Positions 23,247-59,293 are shown, counted from the stretch's first letter. The stretch: 64,000 nucleotides of DNA from Escherichia coli (GCF_003018255.1 NZ_CP027440.1); one strand, 5' to 3'. Notes: generated by a model not told the origin, from the sequence alone. Translations and numbers: made by a program.

Positions 23247-23323
<77 letters not shown>

Positions 23324-23356: not shown

Positions 23357-23433
<77 letters not shown>

Positions 23434-23466: not shown

Positions 23467-23529
<63 letters not shown>

Positions 23530-23543
<14 letters not shown>

Positions 23544-23570
23544 ATTTATTAGAATGCTGACAAACCGCAA
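23530..23570 (+). repeat. Direct repeat copy 1 (tRNA 3' end plus 27 bp flank); att-like
   Basis: ggcccccgcaaccaatttattagaatgctgacaaaccgcaa recurs identically at 50661-50701. Confidence 0.85.
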
Positions 23571-23596
23571 AGCTACTATTGGCTTGCGGTTTTTTC
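23563..23596 (+). terminator. Intrinsic terminator after the tRNA array
   Basis: Stem AACCGCAA (23563-23570) / TTGCGGTT (23584-23591) followed by a T-run (23592-23596). Confidence 0.55.
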
Positions 23597-24174
23597 GTTT
23601 TTACGCTTCCTTACCCGTTTCAGTGAAGCCTGAGACAATGAGTAAACCGTTAATATCCCTCCATCAAAGCCATCCATCTTATTTATATATTAAACATATA
23701 CCCCATTAATGAATTTTATATATTCTATAAATCAATTTATTTTGGTTATGTTAACATTTCAATATCACAACAGGGCGCTACGCTTATATAATCATTGTAC
23801 AAAAAGCACACAACTTTTTAATTAGTAGAAAAATTAATAATTTTTTGTGAAAGCCCGGACAATAAGTTTAATGAATATCTTAATAGGCTCTCATACTACC
23901 CAATTTCTTAAAAGTGCAAATTTGTGAAGCTTACCCTGTTATTATTTTAAGTTTCATGCCAAATTCTCTCACCAGATAATGCCACCCTCTCCCGAAAAAT
24001 AATCAAGAGGCCAAACAATATCTAAAATGATACAACTGTATCTATTCCCCTGAAAAATACATTATTCATTTGTATATTTTCCTCATCATTGCTTTTTATT
24101 TAAATCATCCGATAATCCCCTGAATATAATTATGTCAATAACCATCAGAAAAAGTGGATGATGAGGAAAAGGAT
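23597..24174 (+). promoter_or_regulatory. AT-rich upstream region of the tssB-led T6SS operon (promoter candidate)
   Basis: About 580 bp of strongly AT-rich non-coding DNA immediately upstream of tssB. Individual sites were not mapped. Confidence 0.45.
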
Positions 24175-24675
24175 ATGGCCGACAGTTTCCAGAATGAAGT
24201 TCCCGCCGCTCGTGTAAATATCAAGCTTGATCTGCATACAGGCAATGCTAAAAAGAAAGTTGAACTCCCCCTCAAGCTTCTTGCCGTAGGCGATTACAGT
24301 AACGGAAAAGAGCAACGTCCGCTGTCCGAACGGGACAAGGTTGATATCAATAAAAACAACTTCAACAGCGTCATGGCTGAGTTTTCGCCTGCGGTTAATT
24401 TAACAGTAGAAGATACGCTAAACGGAAACGGTAATGAACAAAATATCGCGCTTGAATTTAAAAGCCTGAAGGATTTTGAACCCGAACAGGTAGCAAAAAA
24501 TATTCCGCAACTTCGTGTATTACTCGCTATGCGCAATTTACTACGTGACCTGAAATCCAATCTGCTGGATAACGCAACGTTTCGCCGTGAACTGGAAAAT
24601 ATCCTGAAAGACCCGACGCTCAGTTCAGAACTGCGTGATGAACTGGCGAAAATTGCGCCGCAGGAGAACGTTTAA
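24175..24675 (+). CDS. tssB: T6SS contractile sheath small subunit TssB (VipA)
   Basis: MADSFQNEVPAARVNIKLDLHTGNAKKKVELPLKLLAVGDYS...; typical TssB N-terminus and size. Start at ATG 24175 with GAGGAAAAGG upstream; the track begins at GTG 24154. Confidence 0.9.
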   Translation: MADSFQNEVPAARVNIKLDLHTGNAKKKVELPLKLLAVGDYSNGKEQRPLSERDKVDINKNNFNSVMAEFSPAVNLTVEDTLNGNGNEQNIALEFKSLKDFEPEQVAKNIPQLRVLLAMRNLLRDLKSNLLDNATFRRELENILKDPTLSSELRDELAKIAPQENV

Positions 24676-24727: not shown

Positions 24728-26272
24728 ATGCTGATGTCTGTACAACAAGAATATGCCACCTCTGAAACTGCAACACTCACCACCACTGAGTCCGGCGGCG
24801 TTTATCAGTCCCTGTTTGATAAAATTAATTTAACCCCGGTCTCTTCCATTCAGGAAATCGATTTATGGCAAAACAGCGAAACGCTGGCCGATGCTTCACC
24901 CGATGAGCGCGTGACGGCGGCGATCCACGTTCTGCTTTCCTGTCTGGCGAAATCAGGCGAGGACGTGGTTAAACTCGACAAGAGCCTGCTGGATTTTCAT
25001 ATCGACGATTTGGATCAGAAAATCAGTAAACAGCTTGATGCAGTCATGCACCATCCGGAATTCCAGAAAGTCGAGTCGCTCTGGCGCGGCACATGGTTCG
25101 TCGTACAGCGCACCGATTTTCGCAAAAATGTCAAAATTGAACTGCTGGATATCAGTAAAGAACATCTGCGGCAGGACTTTGATGATTCTCCGGAAATCAT
25201 TCAAAGTGGTTTATATCGCCATACATACATTCAGGAATATGATACGCCGGGTGGCGAACCTGTAGCCTCATTAATATCCAGCTATGAATTCGATAACAGC
25301 CCGCAGGATATTGCCCTGCTGCGTAATATTTCCAGAGTCTCTGCTGCATCACATATGCCCTTTATCGGTTCCGTCGGACCGAAGTTCTTCCTTAAAAACT
25401 CGATGGAAGAAGTCGCCGCAATTAAAGATATCGGCAACTATTTTGACCGCGCGGAATATATCAAATGGAAGTCGTTCCGCGATACCGACGACAGCCGCTA
25501 CGTGGGATTAGTGATGCCGCGCGTGCTGGGCCGTCTGCCCTATGGCCCGGACACGGTGCCGGTACGCAGCTTTAACTATGTGGAAGAGGTCAAAGGCCCG
25601 GATCACGAAAAGTACCTCTGGACAAACGCCTCGTTTGCCTTTGCCGCCAATATGGTGAAGAGTTTTGTGAATAATGGCTGGTGTGTGCAGATCCGTGGTC
25701 CGCAGGCGGGTGGCGCAGTAGCCGATCTGCCGATCCATCTTTACGATCTCGGCACCGGCAATCAGGTCAAAATTCCGTCCGAAGTGATGATCCCGGAAAC
25801 CCGCGAGTTTGAGTTCGCCAACCTTGGCTTTATCCCGCTCTCTTATTATAAGAATCGCGATTACGCCTGCTTCTTCTCAGCGAACTCTGCCCAGAAACCG
25901 GCGCTGTATGATACCGCTGACGCCACCGCCAACAGCCGTATCAACGCCCGTTTGCCCTATATCTTCCTGCTGTCCCGCATTGCTCACTACCTGAAAATCA
26001 TTCAGCGCGAGAATATCGGCACCACCAAAGACAGACGCGTGCTGGAACTGGAGCTGAACACCTGGATCCGCACGCTGGTGACGGAAATGACCGATCCGGG
26101 CGATGAACTTCAGGCTTCGCATCCACTGCGCGACGGGAAAGTTATCGTCGAGGACATAGAGGACAATCCGGGCTTTTTCCGCGTCAGACTCTTTGCCGTG
26201 CCGCATTTCCAGATCGAAGGGATGGACGTCAACCTTTCTCTGGTTTCCCAGATGCCAAAAGCAAAAGCCTGA
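24728..26272 (+). CDS. tssC: T6SS contractile sheath large subunit TssC (VipB)
   Basis: 514-aa ORF immediately downstream of tssB; size and position typical of TssC. True start may be the third codon (ATG 24734). Confidence 0.9.
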   Translation: MLMSVQQEYATSETATLTTTESGGVYQSLFDKINLTPVSSIQEIDLWQNSETLADASPDERVTAAIHVLLSCLAKSGEDVVKLDKSLLDFHIDDLDQKISKQLDAVMHHPEFQKVESLWRGTWFVVQRTDFRKNVKIELLDISKEHLRQDFDDSPEIIQSGLYRHTYIQEYDTPGGEPVASLISSYEFDNSPQDIALLRNISRVSAASHMPFIGSVGPKFFLKNSMEEVAAIKDIGNYFDRAEYIKWKSFRDTDDSRYVGLVMPRVLGRLPYGPDTVPVRSFNYVEEVKGPDHEKYLWTNASFAFAANMVKSFVNNGWCVQIRGPQAGGAVADLPIHLYDLGTGNQVKIPSEVMIPETREFEFANLGFIPLSYYKNRDYACFFSANSAQKPALYDTADATANSRINARLPYIFLLSRIAHYLKIIQRENIGTTKDRRVLELELNTWIRTLVTEMTDPGDELQASHPLRDGKVIVEDIEDNPGFFRVRLFAVPHFQIEGMDVNLSLVSQMPKAKA

Positions 26273-36601: not shown

Positions 36602-36980
36602 TTTCTTTTTTTGTTCAAATAGTTACTCCGAAGAAAAAATAGAGATAATAAACATTAATAAACCAATATATATAGGTACCAATCAATCAGATAAGGTGCT
36701 TATTACTGCGTGTAATCATTGGGTGCTTAATTCTAGAGATATTATAGACATATTCAATCTAAGTATAAAGCATGATGATTATGGCGAAATAAACAGAATG
36801 TATTATTGGTTACCTTGTGAAATTAGAGGGAGACTAATGTATGACGGAATAGAATGGAGTTTTGTTATCAATGCTGCTGCAACAGCAATGTGGATGAGCA
36901 ATGATAAAGAGATTTACTGGGGATGCAATAAAAAAGCATGCGATAATTTCTTTTTATTACCATATGATGGGATGAGGTAA
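36543..36980 (+). CDS. Candidate cognate immunity protein (periplasmic, signal peptide)
   Basis: Overlaps the 3' end of the amidase gene. N-terminus MIKLVIKQKVKALISIVLINFFFCSNSYS looks like a Sec signal peptide; Cys-rich; AT-rich. Start among ATG 36531/36537/36543 is uncertain. Confidence 0.5.
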   Translation: MIKLVIKQKVKALISIVLINFFFCSNSYSEEKIEIININKPIYIGTNQSDKVLITACNHWVLNSRDIIDIFNLSIKHDDYGEINRMYYWLPCEIRGRLMYDGIEWSFVINAAATAMWMSNDKEIYWGCNKKACDNFFLLPYDGMR

Positions 36981-37085
36981 ATCACAGTTAATAAAGCAAA
37001 AACATTATGGACAAGTGAATTAATCAGATAGTTCAAGCACCTTGAGATTCATTGTATTCATATTTCAGAATAACGGATTATTACA

Positions 37086-43286: not shown

Positions 43287-44698
43287 TGGCAATGGGAACA
43301 GGCTACTTTCTGGTCAGGGGGGACAAAACCACCTGCGGCGGCAAAATTATTGAAGGCGCGGACGACCATACGATCATGGGTATCCCGCAGGCGCGGGATA
43401 TGGACCGGGTCACCTGCGGCAGATATCCGGGAATGTTTATTATTGTGGGCGGCGTTCCTGAAACAGATATTCACGGCAGGCTGATGGCGGGGACGCTGGA
43501 CAGTCAGAGCAGTTGCCCGTGTAAGGCACGGTTTATTGCGTCAATGATGGATGATACGTATGAGACGGATGACGGGGAAAGTGAAGCGGAACAACATGCG
43601 CAGTCGGCGAAAAAGGATCTGACTTCTGGTTCTGATTCATCCTCTGATGATGTAAAACTGGATTACAGAATTAAATTATCAGGTAATAAGATACTGACGC
43701 CACTGAATATACCTGATTATAAAGAAATGATTAGCGGTGGTAGTACGAAGAATACAGAAAAAATAGATTTTACCATCACAAATAAAGGCGATGAGGCTGA
43801 AGCGCTTTCTCTGGAAGTGCTTGATGGTAATGAAGTGATTTATAGTGAACGGCAGACCGGTAAATATTGTGATAAGGGAGAGCATGCCTGGCAATGGGAT
43901 GGCTACAGTAATCAAGGCATACTGGATACAACTAAGATAAAAAGCAAATCACTACTCGTAAGACTGATTGCTTTATGTGGTGATATGATGATAAAAGTTG
44001 ATTATCCATTGAAAAATGCTGCGAAAGAAGAAGAGTGGGTTGATGTAAAAGTTGACAGAAATAATAAAGTGGTCGATATAACATGGAGATTATCTGTTAA
44101 GGATAGCGGTACAAAAGGCAGTAACCCTGAGTTATCGCCAATACCTTATAGCGATTTAGTTAGTCTTACTAAAAATGGCGTGGAGTTTTACTGGTCACGA
44201 AATGGAAGTCGCGGCGGGGGAATTGGTGGTAATATCGTTACAGCGATTGGGGTTTTTAAAGTAAATGTAAAGGCTGAGATAAATATTACTCCATCTATGC
44301 GAACTTTTGATTTGATATCATCGTTAGATCCAGATATGCAGTCGTCGGTAAGTCTTTTGGGGTTTGAAAAAATATACCATAACTATGGTGGCTATTATAA
44401 TAACAGCAAGGATGAAATAAAGGCTCTTCTATATAGTAATGAAAGATATAAATGGGATAGTGCTCATGAGATGGGACATAAAGTTATGGATAAATATGGT
44501 TCTGAATCATGGACACATAAGGGGACATCCACGCGGGGTCAAAGTACCATCCCTAATACTCCAATGCCATCTTCAGGAGAGATTGATATAATGAAATATG
44601 CAGATAGCTATGCACCTGATAGATATAAGAGATTGGTCGCGGCAGATGAAGATGTTCAGGCATTGATCTGGTTGAGCAGGGTGAGTTTTAATGATTAG
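43286..44698 (+). CDS. PAAR-domain protein with C-terminal HExxH (zincin-like) putative toxin domain; candidate specialised T6SS effector
   Basis: N-terminal about 85 aa is PAAR-like (GDKTTCGG...GIPQARDMDRVTCG...SSCPCKA) and GC-rich. The remainder is AT-rich and contains SAHEMGHKV. Start overlaps the tssA stop (TGATG). Confidence 0.7.
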   Translation: MAMGTGYFLVRGDKTTCGGKIIEGADDHTIMGIPQARDMDRVTCGRYPGMFIIVGGVPETDIHGRLMAGTLDSQSSCPCKARFIASMMDDTYETDDGESEAEQHAQSAKKDLTSGSDSSSDDVKLDYRIKLSGNKILTPLNIPDYKEMISGGSTKNTEKIDFTITNKGDEAEALSLEVLDGNEVIYSERQTGKYCDKGEHAWQWDGYSNQGILDTTKIKSKSLLVRLIALCGDMMIKVDYPLKNAAKEEEWVDVKVDRNNKVVDITWRLSVKDSGTKGSNPELSPIPYSDLVSLTKNGVEFYWSRNGSRGGGIGGNIVTAIGVFKVNVKAEINITPSMRTFDLISSLDPDMQSSVSLLGFEKIYHNYGGYYNNSKDEIKALLYSNERYKWDSAHEMGHKVMDKYGSESWTHKGTSTRGQSTIPNTPMPSSGEIDIMKYADSYAPDRYKRLVAADEDVQALIWLSRVSFND

Positions 44699-44713
44699 AA
44701 TAATTGTTTTTTA

Positions 44714-45115
44714 TTGTTTTTTTTGAGTGGGTGTACTTCACAAAAAGAGTATTCCAATATAGTCAGGATTGAGAATAGATGCTCCTCAGATATCGATGTC
44801 TTTATTCAGGGATATGTTTCCGGTTCTACGCTGATTTATCAGCATAATATACACTTGCCAGTTGGTGATAGTGATGTATTAGTATATTTTTCCACGGCAG
44901 ATATTGATGATGGTTTTAAATATGAGGGGGCATTCATGATATATAAAGATAGCCGCGGTGAATTGGATTATCCATTCACCATTTCATTGTCAGGGCGCGA
45001 AAAAAAATTTGGGAAGAATGACTTAATTAGATTATCACGAGATATTTCAACAAAAGACGACAGAAAATACGGAGTTATAAGATATATAATCGACAGTCAG
45101 GAAATTTGCCCGTGA
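44714..45115 (+). CDS. Candidate immunity lipoprotein for the PAAR-HExxH protein (5' end disrupted or phase-variable at a T8 tract)
   Basis: Track ORF starts at TTG 44714 (FFLSGCTSQ..., lipobox LSGC without a signal peptide). ATG 44691 in another frame encodes MIRIIVFYCFF then stops; one extra T in the T8 run (44717-44724) would fuse it into a canonical lipoprotein signal peptide. Confidence 0.5.
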   Translation: MFFLSGCTSQKEYSNIVRIENRCSSDIDVFIQGYVSGSTLIYQHNIHLPVGDSDVLVYFSTADIDDGFKYEGAFMIYKDSRGELDYPFTISLSGREKKFGKNDLIRLSRDISTKDDRKYGVIRYIIDSQEICP

Positions 45116-45324
45116 TGTTTTAAGTTATTCGTTCACAATTATTAATTATTGCCTATTATGTAAGGTAAATTTAATTTGGTTCAGAAAAGACAAGAATACA
45201 TCATTATTAAAATCAATAAGTCAGCAACTATCCATAATATATTCACATAGAATAAATTTAACTATGATGTTACTTCTACACCTGCATGATATTCACTTTC
45301 AATGAAAGGAAGATAATCCCTCCG

Positions 45325-50453: not shown

Positions 50454-50660
50454 ACATCGGGGGATTTATGTACCAATAAGGGATATGTGACCTTGCCATT
50501 TTTTAAAATGGAGTCTCTGTGTACAAAAAAGAGAGGAACAGGCCATTCGATCTACTCGTTGATTCACATCAGATAATGAGTGTATATTTCGGTAGATAGC
50601 TTGGGTTCGGGAACAGTGAATACCTTAAGTTTCAAAAGATTGGATTAACCTCTTGACTGT

Positions 50661-50701
50661 GGCCCCCGCAACCAATTTATTAGAATGCTGACAAACCGCA
50701 A
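50661..50701 (+). repeat. Direct repeat copy 2 (duplicate of tRNA-fMet 3' end plus 27 bp); att-like module boundary
   Basis: Identical to 23530-23570, with no tRNA body upstream. Confidence 0.85.
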
Positions 50702-50727
50702 TGTGTTCTACAAATTGCGGTTTTTTT
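50693..50727 (+). terminator. Intrinsic terminator-like hairpin at the second repeat
   Basis: Stem AACCGCAAT / ATTGCGGTT followed by T7 (50721-50727); same stem as at 23563-23591 but with a different loop. Confidence 0.5.
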
Positions 50728-50753
50728 GTATTTAAAATCTTTGTTCGCTGAAC

Positions 50754-51710
50754 TCACAACACGTTTTTTATCTCCCTTCCTGCGAAGTAATCAATTATCG
50801 ACTGGGCAACGTGTATCCCGGTTTGCTGGTATGACTCAACGGTGGCGGCCGCGATATGCGGCGTTGTAATGATATTTTTGGCATGTAGCAGTGGGCTAAA
50901 TTGCGCCAACGGTTCAGAGCTAAACACATCCAGCGCCGCAAACACATTTCGTTCTTCAATCACCTGAAGTAAAGCGCCCTCATCCAGCAACTTTCCCCTT
51001 GCGGCATTGATGATCAGAGCACCATTGCGCATCATCGACAAATATTTATGACTAATGAAGTTCTCCAGCTCAGAAGAAAAAGGCAAAAGAACAATGATGA
51101 CATGCGACTGCATAAAGATATCTTCAATTGATACAAACTGAACTCCAGCTTTGTCAGCAACCTGATAGTCGGGTTGTTTGTCAAAAGCTAAAAGCTCAAC
51201 ATCAAAACCAGATAACCTTTTCGCCAGTGTTTTGCCAATATTGCCGTAGCCAAGCAGGCCAATACGTTTACCTTGTAACTCGCAGCCATGCGACTCACCC
51301 CAATAACCATTTTGCATTGCATGATAGCTACCGGGGATATTTCTCATGCTCGCAAAAATAAGACCGATGATAAATTCCGCGACTGCGTTTGAATTAATCC
51401 CAACAGCATTATTGACCACAATACCTGATTGTCGAGCCGTATGAAGATCAATATTATCAATCCCTGTCCCGAATCTCGATATTATTTTCACTCCTGGTAG
51501 TCGCGATAACGTATCCGCTTGATAACAATCTTTTCCGGCAATGACTGCGCAAATAGATTCTCGTAATACTGTGGATTCTGATTTAACCAGATGCTCCACA
51601 TTATTCTTGATAATAAGGTTAAAATGATTTTCTCTTAGCAGCTTGCTGGCAGAAACACAACGCGCTGAAAAGCTGGGAACGGTGACCAGAACGTTTTTCA
51701 TAGCTGACAC
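50754..51710 (-). CDS. D-isomer-specific 2-hydroxyacid dehydrogenase family protein (NAD-binding)
   Basis: 318 aa with Rossmann motif LLGYGNIGKTLAKRL; last gene of the minus-strand operon. Confidence 0.8.
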   Translation of the reverse strand: MSAMKNVLVTVPSFSARCVSASKLLRENHFNLIIKNNVEHLVKSESTVLRESICAVIAGKDCYQADTLSRLPGVKIISRFGTGIDNIDLHTARQSGIVVNNAVGINSNAVAEFIIGLIFASMRNIPGSYHAMQNGYWGESHGCELQGKRIGLLGYGNIGKTLAKRLSGFDVELLAFDKQPDYQVADKAGVQFVSIEDIFMQSHVIIVLLPFSSELENFISHKYLSMMRNGALIINAARGKLLDEGALLQVIEERNVFAALDVFSSEPLAQFSPLLHAKNIITTPHIAAATVESYQQTGIHVAQSIIDYFAGREIKNVL

Positions 51711-51771
51711 TCACATCAATGAACGCCACCCCAAAAGATGGCGTGACCGGTTACTGTTTTATATTCTAAAA

Positions 51772-52368
51772 TTATGAGTTTGCTTTAATACCGAGCGCAC
51801 CTCCTGGATGATATAAGCCGAAATCAGCACGAGTAAACTTTTTCAATTCGGAGAGCGCAAGCGCCACCGCATCACCAACAACCAGAACGACTGTTGATGA
51901 GCATGACGGCGCTAAACCTAAATTATCCGCCTCACTTTTTACGGGAATTTCAACGGATAAATCACAACTTATCGCAAGCGATGAGCGATGACTGCGGGTA
52001 AAGGAGATCAAATAATTACCCATTTTTTTCAGACTAGGTAGTGTTGCCAGGATTTCTGTCGTCTCACCACTGTTTGAAATAAGAATAACAACATCATCTT
52101 TCGCCACCATCCCAAGATCGCCGTGTACGGCTTCAGTACCGTGAACAAAAAACGAGGGAGTTCCAGTGCTGGCAAATGTTGCGGCGAGTTTTCGGGCAAT
52201 AATACCGGACTTACCGACACCAATAAAAACAACTTTCCCCTGACAAGACTGTAATACTTTAATTAAATTTGCGACCTCCGAAAGGGGGGAATCAATAACT
52301 TCTTCAACTGCTTTATGTTCGTTACGCATAAAATGTTTAATGAGATGGATAAGATCCGTACTGTTCAT
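51772..52368 (-). CDS. SIS-domain (sugar isomerase / sugar-phosphate binding) protein
   Basis: 198 aa with SIS motif VVFIGVGKSGIIARKLAATFASTGTPSFFVH. Confidence 0.8.
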   Translation of the reverse strand: MNSTDLIHLIKHFMRNEHKAVEEVIDSPLSEVANLIKVLQSCQGKVVFIGVGKSGIIARKLAATFASTGTPSFFVHGTEAVHGDLGMVAKDDVVILISNSGETTEILATLPSLKKMGNYLISFTRSHRSSLAISCDLSVEIPVKSEADNLGLAPSCSSTVVLVVGDAVALALSELKKFTRADFGLYHPGGALGIKANS

Positions 52369-52370
52369 TT

Positions 52371-53546
52371 TTATTTTCCTTGATTAATATTTTTAATTAC
52401 ACTCGCAAGACGCGTAAGCCCCATATATAATTTTTCTCGACCGCAGGCCAGGTTCAGACGAAGGTAGCCCTCCCCCTCCGTTCCATAGACATTCCCCGCC
52501 ATAATGCCCACTTTGCCTTCATGAATTAATCGACTGTAGAATTCATCAAAGGAATAACCAATAGCAGAGCAATCTATCCACGAAAAATAGCAACCATCAG
52601 CTGGCCTTACGATCAATTCTGGAGTATTTTCGTTCAGATACTGCTGGGTGAATTGAATGTTAGAGGCGATATGTGCCTTTAATGACTTTAACCATCCCTC
52701 ACATTCATTATAGGCAACAATGGTTGCAATTATATTCAGTACTGATGGGGAGTTTACGAAATCGCGATACCTCGATATCGTTCTGAACTTATGATTATAA
52801 TCCTCGTCAGTTGAAATCAGATACGATCCTGTTAGCGCAGGAACATTAAATGTTTTCGATATCGAGTTAAATACCACTACTTTTTCTTTTTTTATTTTAA
52901 GCGCGGATGTAAAGCTACGATTAAAAACAAAATCACTATGAATTTCATCTGAACATAACCAGACATTATGCCTTGTACAGCTTGTAGCGATTTTAAGCAG
53001 TTCTTCTTCCGACCAGACTGTTCCTGTCGGATTATGAGGATTACATAATAACACCATCTTTGCGCTTTTAATCTTAAGATCAAAATCTTGCCAGTTGATA
53101 GCGTAGCCCCCCTCATTTTTTATAATCAAAGAGGCTGTCAGAATATTTCGCTCGCTATGTTTAATTACATCAAAAAATGCATTATAGACAGGTGTAAAAA
53201 CGAGAATATTATCACCATGCGATGTCAATAACTCTATTGCCTTTGCAATAGAGTACATCACACTGGGGCTATAGGTTATCCATTCAGGTTTAATGTCTGT
53301 TTGATATTGTTGATGATACCAGTTTACTATCGCATTCAGATATTCACCATGTTGCCAACGACTGTACCCTAAAATCGGGTGTTCCAGGCGTTTTTTTAAT
53401 GCTCTGGTGATAGCGTCTGGTATCGGAAGATCCATATCTGAAATAGAGAAGGGTAATACATCTTTTACACCAAATCTGTCCTCGCAAAAGTCCCATTGGG
53501 TGCAATATGTTCCTTTACGGGAAATAGGAGTATTAAAAATATCCAT
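52371..53546 (-). CDS. PLP-dependent class I/II aminotransferase-fold enzyme, MalY/PatB-like C-S lyase
   Basis: 391 aa with PLP-lysine motif SISKTFN; similar in size and features to MalY. Confidence 0.8.
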   Translation of the reverse strand: MDIFNTPISRKGTYCTQWDFCEDRFGVKDVLPFSISDMDLPIPDAITRALKKRLEHPILGYSRWQHGEYLNAIVNWYHQQYQTDIKPEWITYSPSVMYSIAKAIELLTSHGDNILVFTPVYNAFFDVIKHSERNILTASLIIKNEGGYAINWQDFDLKIKSAKMVLLCNPHNPTGTVWSEEELLKIATSCTRHNVWLCSDEIHSDFVFNRSFTSALKIKKEKVVVFNSISKTFNVPALTGSYLISTDEDYNHKFRTISRYRDFVNSPSVLNIIATIVAYNECEGWLKSLKAHIASNIQFTQQYLNENTPELIVRPADGCYFSWIDCSAIGYSFDEFYSRLIHEGKVGIMAGNVYGTEGEGYLRLNLACGREKLYMGLTRLASVIKNINQGK

Positions 53547-55126
53547 CAGCGCATCCCCATGTAGTTATCCATATCCCTACGCAGGGCGATGACTTTAGTG
53601 CCGATAATGACTTGTAGGGTATTTTGATCAAGTTTAACAACCGCAATCCCGCCAGCTCTTTTTATTGCAACTTCATCAATCAATCCCATATCTGCGATTG
53701 TTAAACGTAAACGAGTTACGCAATTATCCAGTGACTTAATATTCTCTTTACCACCAAGTGCCTTAACCATCTGCTCCGCTGCTTGCAACTCTGATTTATC
53801 AAGAGTTGGGGTATCCGCTATAGCCGTATCTTCGTGAGCGTTCAGCGTGACAGGACTGGACTCTTCACGTCCTACGGTCATCAGGTTAAATTTGAGAATG
53901 GTCCAACGGAACACAAAGTAATAAATGAAGAAATAGGCCACTTCAACACACACCGCGATCGGCCAACCTGTTCTTGTGCCACGCAATACGCCAAAGCTAA
54001 TAAATTGAATCAGATCGCCAGTAAATCCCATCTTCACGCCCATATATGGCAAGACCATGTTGGCGAATCCATTCATAAAGGCATGGAAGACAAACAGCAG
54101 CGGACTGACAAATAAGAACAGAAATTCAATCGGTTCGCTGACGCCACCAATAATAACCGTAAGCACACCGGAAATAAGCAATGCTTTGATAGCCTTTCTG
54201 TTTTGAGCATGAGCAGTGCGATACATGGCCAGTGCAGCACCAGCCAGACCGTACTGAATCATCAGTTTGCCCTGCTCCATTTTCCCCGCCAAATCCAGCG
54301 GAATGACCGCATTCTCTTTGACGTACGCCATAAACATGTTCAGGGTGCCGTAATACTCTTCGCCGCCAATCACAGCCGAACCGCCGATTGGCGTAAAGCG
54401 GAACACTGACGTCACCAGATGGTTTAAGCCAAAAGGAATCGTCACACGTTCGGCAACTGCATAGAAGAAATAACCAACAGGACCGGAAGTTGATATCCAG
54501 TGGCCAATGAGCATGAAGAGATTGAAAAATGGCGGCCAGATAAAAGGAATGATCAGACCAAATCCACTCATCACAATCAGTGTAATGATAGGCACCAGAC
54601 GTGGGCCGCTATAAAAACCTAATGATTCTGGAATGCGTAAATTAACGATCTTTTTATACATGCTGGCGACTAATAACCCAGCAACAATTCCCCCTAACAC
54701 GCTGGTATTGTAGGACTGGATCCCCAGAATGATGTTTTGCCCATGTGTCGACATTTGGTCAGCAACGACCAATAAGTCGTGCTGTTTAAGATAAAAGTTC
54801 GTTCCCAGATGCATCGCCATAAAACCAATTAAGCCAGAAAAAGCACCATAGGCTTTATCCTCTTTATCTTTTAATAATCCTAAGGGAATCGCTATCGCAA
54901 ACAATACAGGTAAATTAACAAAGGCAAACAAACCAAGACTAACAATGAAATCAAGTATGGTTTTAATTATTGGAATAGCCAGAAATGGAATTAACTTTGC
55001 CATATCATCACTGGCTAAACCACTTCCCAGCCCTAGCATCATGCCACATACACTTAGCAGAGCAATGGGATACATAAATGCCTTCCCCAGGCTCTGAAAA
55101 AAACTCCAGGCTTTCTTTTGTTTCAT
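53546..55126 (-). CDS. PTS glucose/maltose-family EIICB component (MalX/PtsG-like)
   Basis: 526 aa; polytopic EIIC followed by an EIIB domain with the active-site cysteine motif NCVTRLRL. Confidence 0.85.
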   Translation of the reverse strand: MKQKKAWSFFQSLGKAFMYPIALLSVCGMMLGLGSGLASDDMAKLIPFLAIPIIKTILDFIVSLGLFAFVNLPVLFAIAIPLGLLKDKEDKAYGAFSGLIGFMAMHLGTNFYLKQHDLLVVADQMSTHGQNIILGIQSYNTSVLGGIVAGLLVASMYKKIVNLRIPESLGFYSGPRLVPIITLIVMSGFGLIIPFIWPPFFNLFMLIGHWISTSGPVGYFFYAVAERVTIPFGLNHLVTSVFRFTPIGGSAVIGGEEYYGTLNMFMAYVKENAVIPLDLAGKMEQGKLMIQYGLAGAALAMYRTAHAQNRKAIKALLISGVLTVIIGGVSEPIEFLFLFVSPLLFVFHAFMNGFANMVLPYMGVKMGFTGDLIQFISFGVLRGTRTGWPIAVCVEVAYFFIYYFVFRWTILKFNLMTVGREESSPVTLNAHEDTAIADTPTLDKSELQAAEQMVKALGGKENIKSLDNCVTRLRLTIADMGLIDEVAIKRAGGIAVVKLDQNTLQVIIGTKVIALRRDMDNYMGMR

Positions 55127-55157
55127 GTGGGTTATCTCATATAAATGTTATATATAA

Positions 55158-55982
55158 TTAGTCCATTAATACTTTGGTACGAATAGAGAGATATAGTTTT
55201 TCTTCTAAAATTAATTCATATTTAAAAGTGGCATACAGATACCGTTCAATTTCATGAATTGCGCGCTGTAACAGGATGTCCTTTTCAAGAAACTGTTCAT
55301 AGATATCACCAATATCTTTCTGTTTTATTTTTTCATTGCATAACACGCGACTTGAAAAATATTTAAGGTGCATCATAAATCTGGAATAGTTAAATGAACT
55401 TCTGTCCACCTTTCTGTTATAAACAACTTCAATAAGCTCCGTGATTATTTGCGACAACTCAATAATCCGTACTGATTCATAATCAACTGAATTTTCATAA
55501 TTATTTAAAATATGCAATGCTATAAAACCAATCTCATCATCAGGAAGTTGAACGCTGAATTGCTCATTAATGATAGTTAATGCATCGCGACTTATCGCAT
55601 ACTCTGCTTTGTACAACGCTTTGATTTCATCAAGGAAAACATTATTAATTTGTATACCTGAAACTACTCGGGATATTGCATTCGAAATGTGATCCGCAAG
55701 AATCAATAGTAGCGATGGATTGAGATTTTTTTCGAGATTTTTCTCCGCATATTGCACTATTTTTTCGGCAACAAAAATATACTCAATATCCACATGTTCA
55801 ATCAATTTGTAGAGTTTATTTTTTTGTTCGTTTCTGACATAAAAAATCCGGTTAGCCGGATGTTCAGGGACCGACATTCCATATTTTTTGTTATAACCGA
55901 CGCCAGGTCCAGAAATGATAACCTCCTGTCCATTCATCGATGCCTGTACACAATTATTGTTCATGACTTTTTCGATGATCAT
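55158..55982 (-). CDS. BglG/SacY/GlcT-family transcriptional antiterminator (CAT RNA-binding domain plus two PRDs)
   Basis: MIIEKVMNNNCVQASMNGQEVIISGPGVGYNKKYG (CAT domain) followed by PRD-like regions. Start placed at ATG 55982; the track extension to 56039 translates the leader RAT/terminator. Confidence 0.8.
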   Translation of the reverse strand: MIIEKVMNNNCVQASMNGQEVIISGPGVGYNKKYGMSVPEHPANRIFYVRNEQKNKLYKLIEHVDIEYIFVAEKIVQYAEKNLEKNLNPSLLLILADHISNAISRVVSGIQINNVFLDEIKALYKAEYAISRDALTIINEQFSVQLPDDEIGFIALHILNNYENSVDYESVRIIELSQIITELIEVVYNRKVDRSSFNYSRFMMHLKYFSSRVLCNEKIKQKDIGDIYEQFLEKDILLQRAIHEIERYLYATFKYELILEEKLYLSIRTKVLMD

Positions 55983-55993
55983 TCCATGACTCC

Positions 55994-56068
55994 AAAAAAA
56001 AAGGCAAGGCACGTCAGAAGTAATAATTACTTCAAACATTGCCTTGCCTGATTTAACAGTTACAAGAT
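55994..56068 (-). promoter_or_regulatory. RAT (ribonucleic antiterminator) overlapping an intrinsic terminator in the leader of the antiterminator/PTS operon
   Basis: Minus strand: TCTTGTAACTGTTAAATCAGGCAAGGCA (close to sacB/bgl RAT consensus), whose 3' half GGCAAGGCA pairs with TGCCTTGCC (inner stem GAAGTA/TACTTC), followed by T9 and the start codon. Confidence 0.75.
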
Positions 56069-56118
56069 GATTAACTAATGCGTATACATTACACGGAATT
56101 GTGCTTAATTAAAGAGAT

Positions 56119-56143
56119 GGTCGGCTTATTTTTCAAGCCGACA
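56119..56143 (-). terminator. Hairpin candidate downstream of amiC
   Basis: Stem GTCGGCTT / AAGCCGAC with a 7-nt loop; the following U-tract on the minus strand is interrupted (CATCTCTTTAATT), so it is weak. Confidence 0.3.
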
Positions 56144-56239
56144 TTCAAATATTCGACATCAGTCACAAAACCAGCATCTAATATTCATGAAAATGTTATC
56201 TATTCAACGAAATATAAATTCATTGAATAAATAAAAACA

Positions 56240-57493
56240 TCATCCCCTTCTCGCCAGCGTCGCCCCATCGGCAAAATACGCTTTAATCCCCGCAAGAATA
56301 GACTCCGCAACTTCCTGCTGGAAAGTCGCCGTTTTCAGTTTACGTTCTTCCTCAACGTTACTGATAAACGCCGTTTCGACCAGAATGGAGGGAATATCTG
56401 GTGCCTTTAGTACGGCAAACCCGGCCTGTTCAACTTGATTTTTATGCAGCTTGTTGATTTTACCGAGCTTATTCAGCACCGCTTTACCAAACTTCAGGCT
56501 GTCGGCAATGGTCAGCGACTGCACCATATCGAACATGGTGTGGTCGACATAGCGGTCACCGCTTTTGCTCACGCCACCAATCAAGTCCGAGGCGTTCTGG
56601 GTTTGTGCCAGATATTTTGCCGCAGTACTGGTTGCACCTTTGGTTGAGAGCGCAAACACAGAGGAACCGCTCGGCTGACGACTGGTAAAGGCGTCGGCAT
56701 GGATAGAGACAAACAGGTCAGCACGCTGTTTCTGGGCTTTTGCTACGCGCACTTGCAACGGAATGAAGATGTCTTCATTGCGCGTCATGTACACCTTCAT
56801 ATTGCCCTCTTTCTCGATCAGAGAGCGCAGACGGCGAGCTATTTGCAATACCACGTCTTTTTCGCGCGTTTTGTATTTCCCCACCGCACCGGAGTCTTCG
56901 CCACCGTGGCCAGGGTCAAGCATAATGACAATAGGACGATCGCGCCCTGCTTTACCCGGTTGTGGACCACTTTGTGCTGGCGGCACCTGCTTTTCGAGGT
57001 CGCCTTTGTTGTAATCCTCCAGCAGCGCCAGCAGCGGGTCCTGCATATCCTGTGCATTGGCCGGATAGAGGTCCATCACCAGACGCTCTTTAAACCCGGC
57101 GACCGGCGCAAGGGCAAACAGCTGCGGTTTTACGTTTTGCTTTAATTCAAAAACCATACGTACGGTTTGCGGGTCAAATTGCCCGACGCGCGCCGACTTG
57201 ATGAACGGGTCGTCAGCGCGGATTTGCGCAGCCATCCCCTTGAGTACCGAGTTCAGGTTTACATCTTCGATATCCACCACCACGCGTTCAGGATTACTCA
57301 ACGCGAACTGCTTATATTTCAGCTGACGATTTGATTCTACCGTCACGCGGGTGTAGCTGGACGCAGGCCAGACGCGCACCGCCACGACCTGGCTGACCGC
57401 AGCCAGGCTGACCTGACTTACGCTCAATAGCCACATGGCACCCGCGCCTTGCAGTAAACGACGACGGCTGATTGCAGTGTTGGATCCTGACAT
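56240..57493 (-). CDS. amiC: N-acetylmuramoyl-L-alanine amidase AmiC (Tat-exported, Amidase_3)
   Basis: [31 protein letters not shown] (twin-arginine signal) ...; 417 aa from ATG 57493; the track's 30 upstream codons are a non-native extension. Confidence 0.93.
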
Positions 57494-59056: not shown

Positions 59057-59259
<203 letters not shown>

Positions 59260-59293
59260 CAGGACGCGCATGCGTCGCATCAGGCAATCACGT

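Follow-up and report, generated by a model that had tools for sequence, protein, structure and literature searches.

The sci1 T6SS of EAEC is governed by an epigenetic switch involving Fur and Dam (Brunet et al., 2011; PMC3145626). The DNA upstream of its tssB gene is AT-rich, has a predicted σ70 promoter and carries Fur boxes that are weak by consensus (13/19 and 11/19 matches), one of which overlaps the -10 element. In Salmonella, the horizontally acquired SPI-6 T6SS also has an AT-rich upstream region and is reported to be silenced by H-NS and silent in LB (Brunet, 2015). Locus I of K. pneumoniae is likewise a horizontally acquired T6SS with AT-rich upstream DNA and no expression in LB; loss of hns derepresses a tssB reporter there, and Fur has a positive role (Storey, 2020; PMC7108748). 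The 'T6SS1' of the APEC/ExPEC strain TW-XM (XM) was studied by Ma et al. (2018), who reported that Fur shifts a promoter fragment in EMSA, that hcp1 and clpV1 are induced when fur is deleted or iron is limiting, and that the proximal promoter has two predicted Fur boxes; point mutations in these boxes abolished the shift and increased vipA/tssB expression from a plasmid carrying approximately 250 bp of upstream DNA together with vipAB (PMC5874247). In contrast to K. pneumoniae, Fur is a repressor of XM T6SS1 (PMC5874247), and whereas loss of hns alone is sufficient for derepression in K. pneumoniae, a single hns deletion in XM did not activate hcp1-clpV1-vgrG1 (Fig. S6 of PMC5874247).

Here we analysed a 64,000-nucleotide stretch of an Escherichia coli genome (NZ_CP027440.1), hereafter the window, in which a T6SS operon follows the tRNA gene metV. 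XM has the same metV-gap-tssB locus, differing from the window by seven substitutions and one 4-nt indel, and the primers published for XM (EMSA, negative control and deletion) all have their sites in the window. The EMSA primers T6SS1-F/R match with one and zero mismatches, respectively, the negative-control primers of Ma et al. (2018) map inside tssB, and the hcp1 primers map to hcp at approximately 30.0 kb. Five positions within the EMSA probe differ in the XM allele. Position 24136 is a T in XM, and this C24136T difference raises a proximal Fur-like 19-mer from 12/19 matches in the window to 13/19; the data on regulation come from XM.

The locus is also similar to sci1, since both are AT-rich upstream of tssB and the two systems belong to the same broad group of E. 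coli T6SS. However, the tssB genes are 66% identical, nothing upstream of them aligns, and sci1 is found in the pheU island rather than at metV. In addition, the sci1-type region has three GATC sites whereas the metV–tssB gap has none, and a sci1-like Dam switch is therefore impossible here. By analogy, the metV gap would match sci1 Fur control minus Dam, with the H-NS silencing of SPI-6 and Klebsiella added. Two further regulatory studies proved to concern other loci: a report on FNR and an APEC T6SS (PMC5481319) deals with a locus at 263 kb in APEC O1, and a report on CpxR (PMC6534853) with the hcp2B operon of the other T6SS.

The metV island junction and the composition of the gap

Genes were taken from the RefSeq annotation of E. 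coli JNE23-011, which is 100% identical over the query. The gap is preceded by sdaCB, the fuc operon, gcvA, csdAE, tcdA, mltA and three initiator tRNA-Met genes (RefSeq annotation, ARAGORN), and is followed by tssB-tssC-tssK-tssL, an OmpA-family gene, hcp, tssH, vgrG and further genes (RefSeq annotation). The tRNA genes, at 23247–23323, 23357–23433 and 23467–23543, are an identical trio, metZ, metW and metV. The features around the junction, in window coordinates, are as follows.

23467–23543, plus strand: metV, third gene of metZ/metW/metV, core genome (ARAGORN, Rfam RF00005, RefSeq annotation of the 100%-identical strain, K-12)
23544–23555, no strand: left junction of the 32.7-kb metV island (BLAST of the K-12 mltA-recD region against the window)
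23562–23602, plus strand: island-borne intrinsic terminator of the metZWV operon, a hairpin at 23562–23592 followed by TTTTTTCGTTTTT (RNA fold)
23597–24174, no strand: AT-rich block of 30.6% GC; the distal ~470 bp of the gap are fast-evolving and the proximal ~160 bp conserved (composition, allele differences)
24151–24174, plus strand: last 24 nt before the ATG, with the ribosome-binding site GAGGA at 24164–24168 (BLAST, alignments)
24175–24675, plus strand: tssB (vipA), first gene of the T6SS operon, encoding a protein identical to CFT073 WP_001443093.1 (RefSeq annotation)

When the K-12 mltA-recD region was compared with the window by BLAST, homology ended at 23554 and restarted at 56239, at amiC. 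The intervening 23555–56238 is thus a 32.7-kb island that lies directly after metV, is absent from K-12, and contains a complete T6SS together with a block of PTS/sugar genes. The annotation includes no integrase, and a search of 500 bp around the right junction (55901–56400) for a repeat of the tRNA 3' end gave a longest match of 8 nt. The gap between metV and tssB spans 23544–24174 (631 bp), most of which is made up by the 578 bp of 23597–24174. The original prediction described this block as island DNA lying between the junction and tssB; the homology break at 23554 agrees with this, and its end at 24174 is exact because the tssB ATG is at 24175. Its start at 23597 falls in the T-tract (23590–23602) of the hairpin terminator that follows metV. 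That hairpin has a folding energy of -17.3 kcal/mol (z = -3.7) and its sequence differs from that of the K-12 terminator; the stem ends are kept in 6/6 alleles while loop and bulge vary, and a consensus terminator scan overlooked it owing to the bulge.

The AT-richness that had been noted for the block is real. Its GC content is 30.6%, that of the whole metV–tssB gap 31.2% and that of the window 51.6%; 100-bp sub-windows drop to 23–27%, and the block contains the ATATA and TTTAT runs that had been pointed out (five and four occurrences, respectively). Only 0.7% of all 578-bp segments of the window are equally AT-rich, and the others all lie inside the same island. The contrast implied by 'markedly' is weaker against the long core regulatory gaps of the window, which are themselves AT-rich (ppnN-sdaC 36.9%, fucA-fucP 36.6% and gcvA-ygdI 39.4% GC). 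Compared with such ordinary long intergenic DNA of E. coli, the GC content of the metV–tssB gap is lower by 5–8 points rather than by 20. No other gap in the window is as long. Among the shorter ones, three of 100 bp or more, all in the island, have a GC content under the 30.6% of the block, and for two of these (28.6% and 26.3%) it is under the 31.2% of the whole gap as well.

Three more AT-rich blocks (30–44% GC) occur within the island, the remainder of which has 55–64% GC. The block at 35500–37000 covers the 3' end of vgrG, a peptidoglycan-recognition/amidase-family gene and hypothetical genes, that at 43500–45300 covers the 3' half of a PAAR gene and a small ORF, and that at 50500–56240 corresponds to the PTS/sugar genes. 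The first and second resemble effector/immunity modules that can be exchanged. Two CFT073 genes in these AT-rich areas, c3394 and c3405, are listed as H-NS-bound. Outside the island, the argA-recD gap (59086–59272) exceeds its K-12 counterpart by approximately 190 bp, part of which is a 63-bp repeat of adjacent sequence at 87% identity, and this is possibly a REP/BIME-type expansion.

Distribution and divergence of the upstream region

The gap was found in 1,337 of 5,426 complete E. coli genomes (25%), at 91–100% identity, as a single copy that invariably lies between metV and tssB. Among the carriers are CFT073, ST131, Nissle-type and APEC strains. In the seven alleles fetched and in 25 listed rows out of the 1,337 genomes, RefSeq places no feature within the gap.

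Conservation was assessed by comparing the window allele with six further metV-type alleles. Relative to the CRE10 lineage, the number of differences per consecutive 79-bp block across 23544–24175 is 11, 7, 14, 5, 12, 6, 3 and 2, and tssB has 17 differences per 400 nt. The two main lineages differ at 3% of positions in the 158 bp preceding the ATG, at approximately 12% in the rest of the gap and at 4% in tssB. Despite the 9–12% divergence, the GC content of the gap is 30.7–31.3% in all seven alleles. This pattern fits a constrained core promoter/operator beside a stretch that is constrained mainly in composition.

Two observations concern the distal part of the gap. The window allele lacks 4 nt (TTCA) at 23714/23715 that are present in the six other metV-type alleles, at a site in the fast-evolving part. 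In one E. coli isolate (L009; NZ_OZ040950.1) an IS1 element is inserted approximately 194 nt after metV, equivalent to ~23735, and tssB and the neighbouring T6SS genes are missing from the 2.5 kb fetched downstream; this marks the gap as a site of island decay.

A scan for TssB proteins, using one genome per species, returned only Entomohabitans teleogrylli at 99% protein identity, with all others at 79% or below. The Entomohabitans tssBC genes are 94% identical to the window at the DNA level, and homology stops 24 nt before the ATG. The Entomohabitans type of upstream DNA was found in approximately nine complete E. coli genomes, at 80–90% identity to the Entomohabitans sequence. In the O158:H23 strain CFIAFB20140388 (L092; NZ_CP076709.1:299669-306994) the same T6SS is located at a tRNA-Asp island with genes for ISEc31, ParB and AlpA, an insertion site unlike the metV site of the window. 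Comparison of O158 tssB with that of the metV-type CRE10 showed 5 differences in 400 nt and an identical TssB protein. The O158 tRNA-Asp-type upstream region is 638 bp long with 30.3% GC, and upstream of -24 it gives no significant alignment with the metV type. The last 24 nt (24151–24174) are the only upstream stretch common to the metV, tRNA-Asp and Entomohabitans types, and a TATAAT/Fur-like segment present in the metV type is not found in the tRNA-Asp/Entomohabitans type. We tentatively raise the possibility, though we would not favour it, that the ~635-bp AT-rich upstream region is a site-specific regulatory cassette that has been exchanged independently of the T6SS genes, with a switch point at -24. 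If so, the same weapon would be wired to different signals according to insertion site, and length and ~30% GC would be preserved as needs of H-NS/StpA silencing.

Comparison beyond E. coli gave little that could be aligned. Cross-genus footprinting of 80 tssB loci found no alignable upstream DNA outside E. coli, and apparent conserved blocks relative to Entomohabitans and the tRNA-Asp allele were at noise level by alignment score. Low GC upstream of tssB is the rule: in 64/68 enterobacterial tssB relatives the upstream 300 nt are more than 10 GC points below tssBC (medians 34% versus 51%).

A pair of 10-mers was also noted in the proximal half of the gap. CCGAAAAATA (23992–24001) and CTGAAAAATA (24050–24059) are near-identical to each other and 58 bp apart, and the same two exact 10-mers occur with the same 58-bp spacing upstream of Entomohabitans tssB, within unaligned surroundings (p ~3e-4, calculated post hoc). 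The O158 tRNA-Asp-type allele lacks the first 10-mer and also the -10 of the σ70-like site at 24050–24078. The pair could be a pair of binding sites or an AT-rich coincidence, and is a weak lead.

Promoter candidates and binding of Fur, H-NS and StpA

The candidate regulatory features of the gap are as follows.

23764–23792, plus strand: distal σ70-like site ATCACA-17-TATAAT, 10/12 (promoter scan, PWM 7.6)
23915–24174, no strand: equivalent of the published XM 'T6SS1 promoter' EMSA probe, Fur-shifted (primers T6SS1-F/R, Table S2 of PMC5874247)
24050–24078, plus strand: σ70-like site CTGAAA-17-TATATT, 9/12 (promoter scan)
24089–24116, plus strand: weak σ70-like site TTGCTT-16-GATAAT, where conservation of the gap is highest (PWM 5.1, not above chance)
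24116–24152, no strand: best proximal Fur-like array, overlapping 11–12/19 matches in 3- and 6-bp register (Fur-consensus scan)

Placing a σ70 promoter by sequence alone was unsuccessful, as prediction listed four candidates in the gap and none was above chance. A consensus scan of the gap gave six matches against 3.4 ± 1.9 expected, and by PWM the best listed candidate scored 7.6 and an uncurated one at 23579–23607 scored 7.9, compared with a mean best score of 7.9 for shuffled sequences. The hexamers of the distal site at 23764–23792 are invariant in all alleles while its spacer varies at five positions. In the CRE10 lineage T24051A weakens the -35 of the site at 24050–24078, and the site at 24089–24116 is near-invariant among six alleles. 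An exact TATAAT is present at 24125–24130, without a usable -35. A search of the literature gave no mapped transcription start for tssB. The original prediction considered this block the likely place of the main T6SS promoter: the published EMSA probe, which covers 23915–24174, and the XM plasmid expression speak for a promoter here, but 'main' may overstate its role given the separate ops-containing leader of tssH.

An ops/RfaH site is absent from the gap. The only perfect ops element in the window, GGCGGTAGCGT at 30637–30647 on the plus strand, is 50–60 nt upstream of tssH/clpV within the hcp-tssH gap (30506–30696), and corresponds to the cryptic CFT073 RfaH target 'c3392-tssH'. In CFT073, H-NS is reported to be bound upstream of and within the tssH region, and RfaH to reach the leader of tssH only when both hns and stpA are deleted (PMC9765446). 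We speculate that the RfaH-bound polymerase at tssH might have started transcription at a derepressed promoter of tssB, 6.5 kb upstream, and not at a local one.

Scans with Fur consensus sequences (19-mer and 7-1-7) found nothing above chance. The best match to GATAATGATAATCATTATC in the gap has 13/19 positions and lies at 23861–23885, outside the EMSA probe; a score of 13/19 or better is reached by 44% of composition-matched random sequences. The view reached by eye, that there is no convincing Fur box, was thus reproduced by the motif scan, and the lack of a GATC cluster extends to a complete lack of GATC across 23544–24174. As a calibration, the validated boxes of EAEC sci1 have 13/19 and 11/19 matches, and the best score in the sci1-type region is 13/19. 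Since validated boxes score equally low, a weak score is no argument against Fur, and the scan has no discriminating power. Within the proximal array, the best 19-mer is AATTATGTCAATAACCATC at 24128–24146 (12/19), and the array overlaps the TATAAT at 24125–24130. Judged from sequence, this array is probably the location of the published Fur boxes.

In vivo data for Fur are available for CFT073. ChIP-seq gave no peak entry in the gap and one weak peak at 3228862, at the start of hcp, with a height of 16.55 against >1000 for classical targets (Banerjee, 2020; PMC7157518). ChIP-exo assigned peak P109 to the transcription unit running from tssB to the OmpA-family gene (Gao, 2023; PMC10164565). P109, at 3224065–3224077, is inside tssC, and there is no Fur-like sequence there. 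Neither of the two data sets therefore has a peak called in the gap. The two weak peaks, equivalent to ~30015 (hcp start) and ~25217–25229 (tssC) in the window, come one from each study, differ in position and have Fur-like matches of at most 12/19. Direct Fur control via the gap is thus as reported from XM, and the in vivo data disagree with the binding seen in vitro. Part of the EMSA shift could be due to Fur favouring AT-rich DNA in general, the probe being 260 bp of ~30% GC and the coding control having higher GC.

Binding of H-NS and StpA in CFT073 was mapped by ChIP-seq (Hustmyer et al., 2022; PMC9765446). The 501-nt tssB and the 77-nt gene preceding it are listed there as bound by both proteins (data set S1, sheet 1E); by length and position, the 77-nt gene is one of the metZWV tRNAs. 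The H-NS signal at tssB is 0.32 in the wild type, 0.31 without StpA, 0.17 without H-NS and 0.07 without both, and the StpA signal is comparable to it; for scale, a gene with an occupancy of 0.44 has an IP/input ratio of 36.7 (PMC9765446). The CFT073 gap, at NC_004431.1:3222388–3223022, is ~99% identical to that of the window (five substitutions and one 4-nt indel), and the TssB proteins are identical. Since the gap lies between two genes flagged in this per-gene table, it is itself almost certainly bound by H-NS/StpA in CFT073. The expectation that such DNA is a target of nucleoid proteins is thereby upheld, directly for the two flanking genes and by extension for the gap. The high-affinity H-NS motif TCGATAAATT is not enriched, with two two-mismatch matches in the gap. 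The signal kept in the hns single mutant also offers a possible explanation for the negative hns result in XM, namely that StpA substitutes for H-NS.

A model for control of the metV-island T6SS

Taking these data together, we consider it likely that the metV–tssB gap is the H-NS/StpA-silenced, Fur-modulated promoter region of the metV-island T6SS ('T6SS1'). In this model the island's own terminator after metV, which is evident from the sequence, would shield the T6SS genes from the high transcription of the initiator-tRNA operon. The 31% GC DNA that follows would act as a loading platform for an H-NS/StpA filament, as the occupancy of its flanks suggests, and the filament would reach into tssB and prevent expression of the operon in rich medium. 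With StpA as a probable backup for H-NS, loss of H-NS alone would be insufficient for derepression. The plasmid and in vitro assays on XM place a σ70 promoter within, at most, the conserved proximal 260 bp, with exact sites that are predictions, and show binding of Fur there; Fur most plausibly occupies the TATAAT/Fur-like array of 24116–24152 and would block RNA polymerase at high iron. With silencing and Fur repression combined, expression would require relief of silencing and low iron together. The distal ~470 bp would be constrained mainly in base composition, not in sequence.

An alternative is that Fur is the sole specific regulator, with AT-richness a by-product of island origin and H-NS/StpA binding passive and without control over the promoter. 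The XM genetics are in line with this, as the hns deletion was without effect on hcp1-clpV1-vgrG1 whereas fur deletion, iron limitation and Fur-box mutations were effective, and the high-affinity H-NS motif is absent from the gap. However, because tssB in CFT073 is bound by both proteins and keeps its signal in the hns single mutant, the null result for the XM single mutant is uninformative, and RfaH in CFT073 is reported to arrive at the leader of tssH only when H-NS and StpA are both missing. As neither Fur data set has a peak called in the gap in vivo, we regard this explanation as unlikely. The opposite simplification, that only the proximal ~160 bp are functional as core promoter and operator and that the distal ~470 bp are neutral sequence remaining from the insertion of the island, seems to us improbable to a similar degree. 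The distal part does diverge approximately three times faster than tssB, its small ORFs are broken by indels, the window allele lacks 4 nt at 23714, and one strain carries IS1 approximately 194 nt after metV. Against this stand the narrow range of GC (30.7–31.3%) kept by seven metV-type alleles that are 9–12% divergent, the same length and GC in the unrelated tRNA-Asp-type region (638 bp, 30.3%), the occurrence of a long AT-rich upstream region in 64/68 relatives, and the distal promoter-like hexamers that are invariant while their spacer varies.

Two further explanations carry much less weight. The length of the gap, 631 bp and the longest in the window, together with mechanical ORFs of 21–51 aa, might point to an unannotated gene for a small protein or sRNA, or to a structured leader or riboswitch. 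This is very improbable, as Rfam returned only tRNAs at E <= 1, the 51-aa and 38-aa ORFs are struck by 1-nt and 4-nt indels between alleles, none of the small ORFs survives allele comparison, and RefSeq annotates nothing here in the 25 rows listed of 1,337 genomes or in the seven alleles. Control by σ54 is known for some T6SS clusters of Vibrio, Pseudomonas and Aeromonas, which gives a precedent in other T6SS families for an operon driven by a σ54 promoter and an enhancer-binding protein. Nevertheless, there is no match to TGGCAC-N5-TTGCW with up to two mismatches in 23544–24174, the annotation of the island includes no gene for an enhancer-binding protein, and we give this possibility next to no credence. 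The silenced, Fur-modulated promoter region thus remains our preferred reading of the gap.

That the gap is a promoter region is already known and is an ordinary finding, and the current understanding of T6SS regulation is unchanged by it. The analysis does join two literatures that do not cite each other at this locus, that on Fur in APEC XM and that on H-NS/StpA in CFT073, and it draws attention to Fur binding in vitro that is unmatched by ChIP peaks in vivo. The T6SS downstream of the gap is carried by a quarter of the complete E. coli genomes searched, and the time at which it fires bears on competition in the gut and on extraintestinal virulence.
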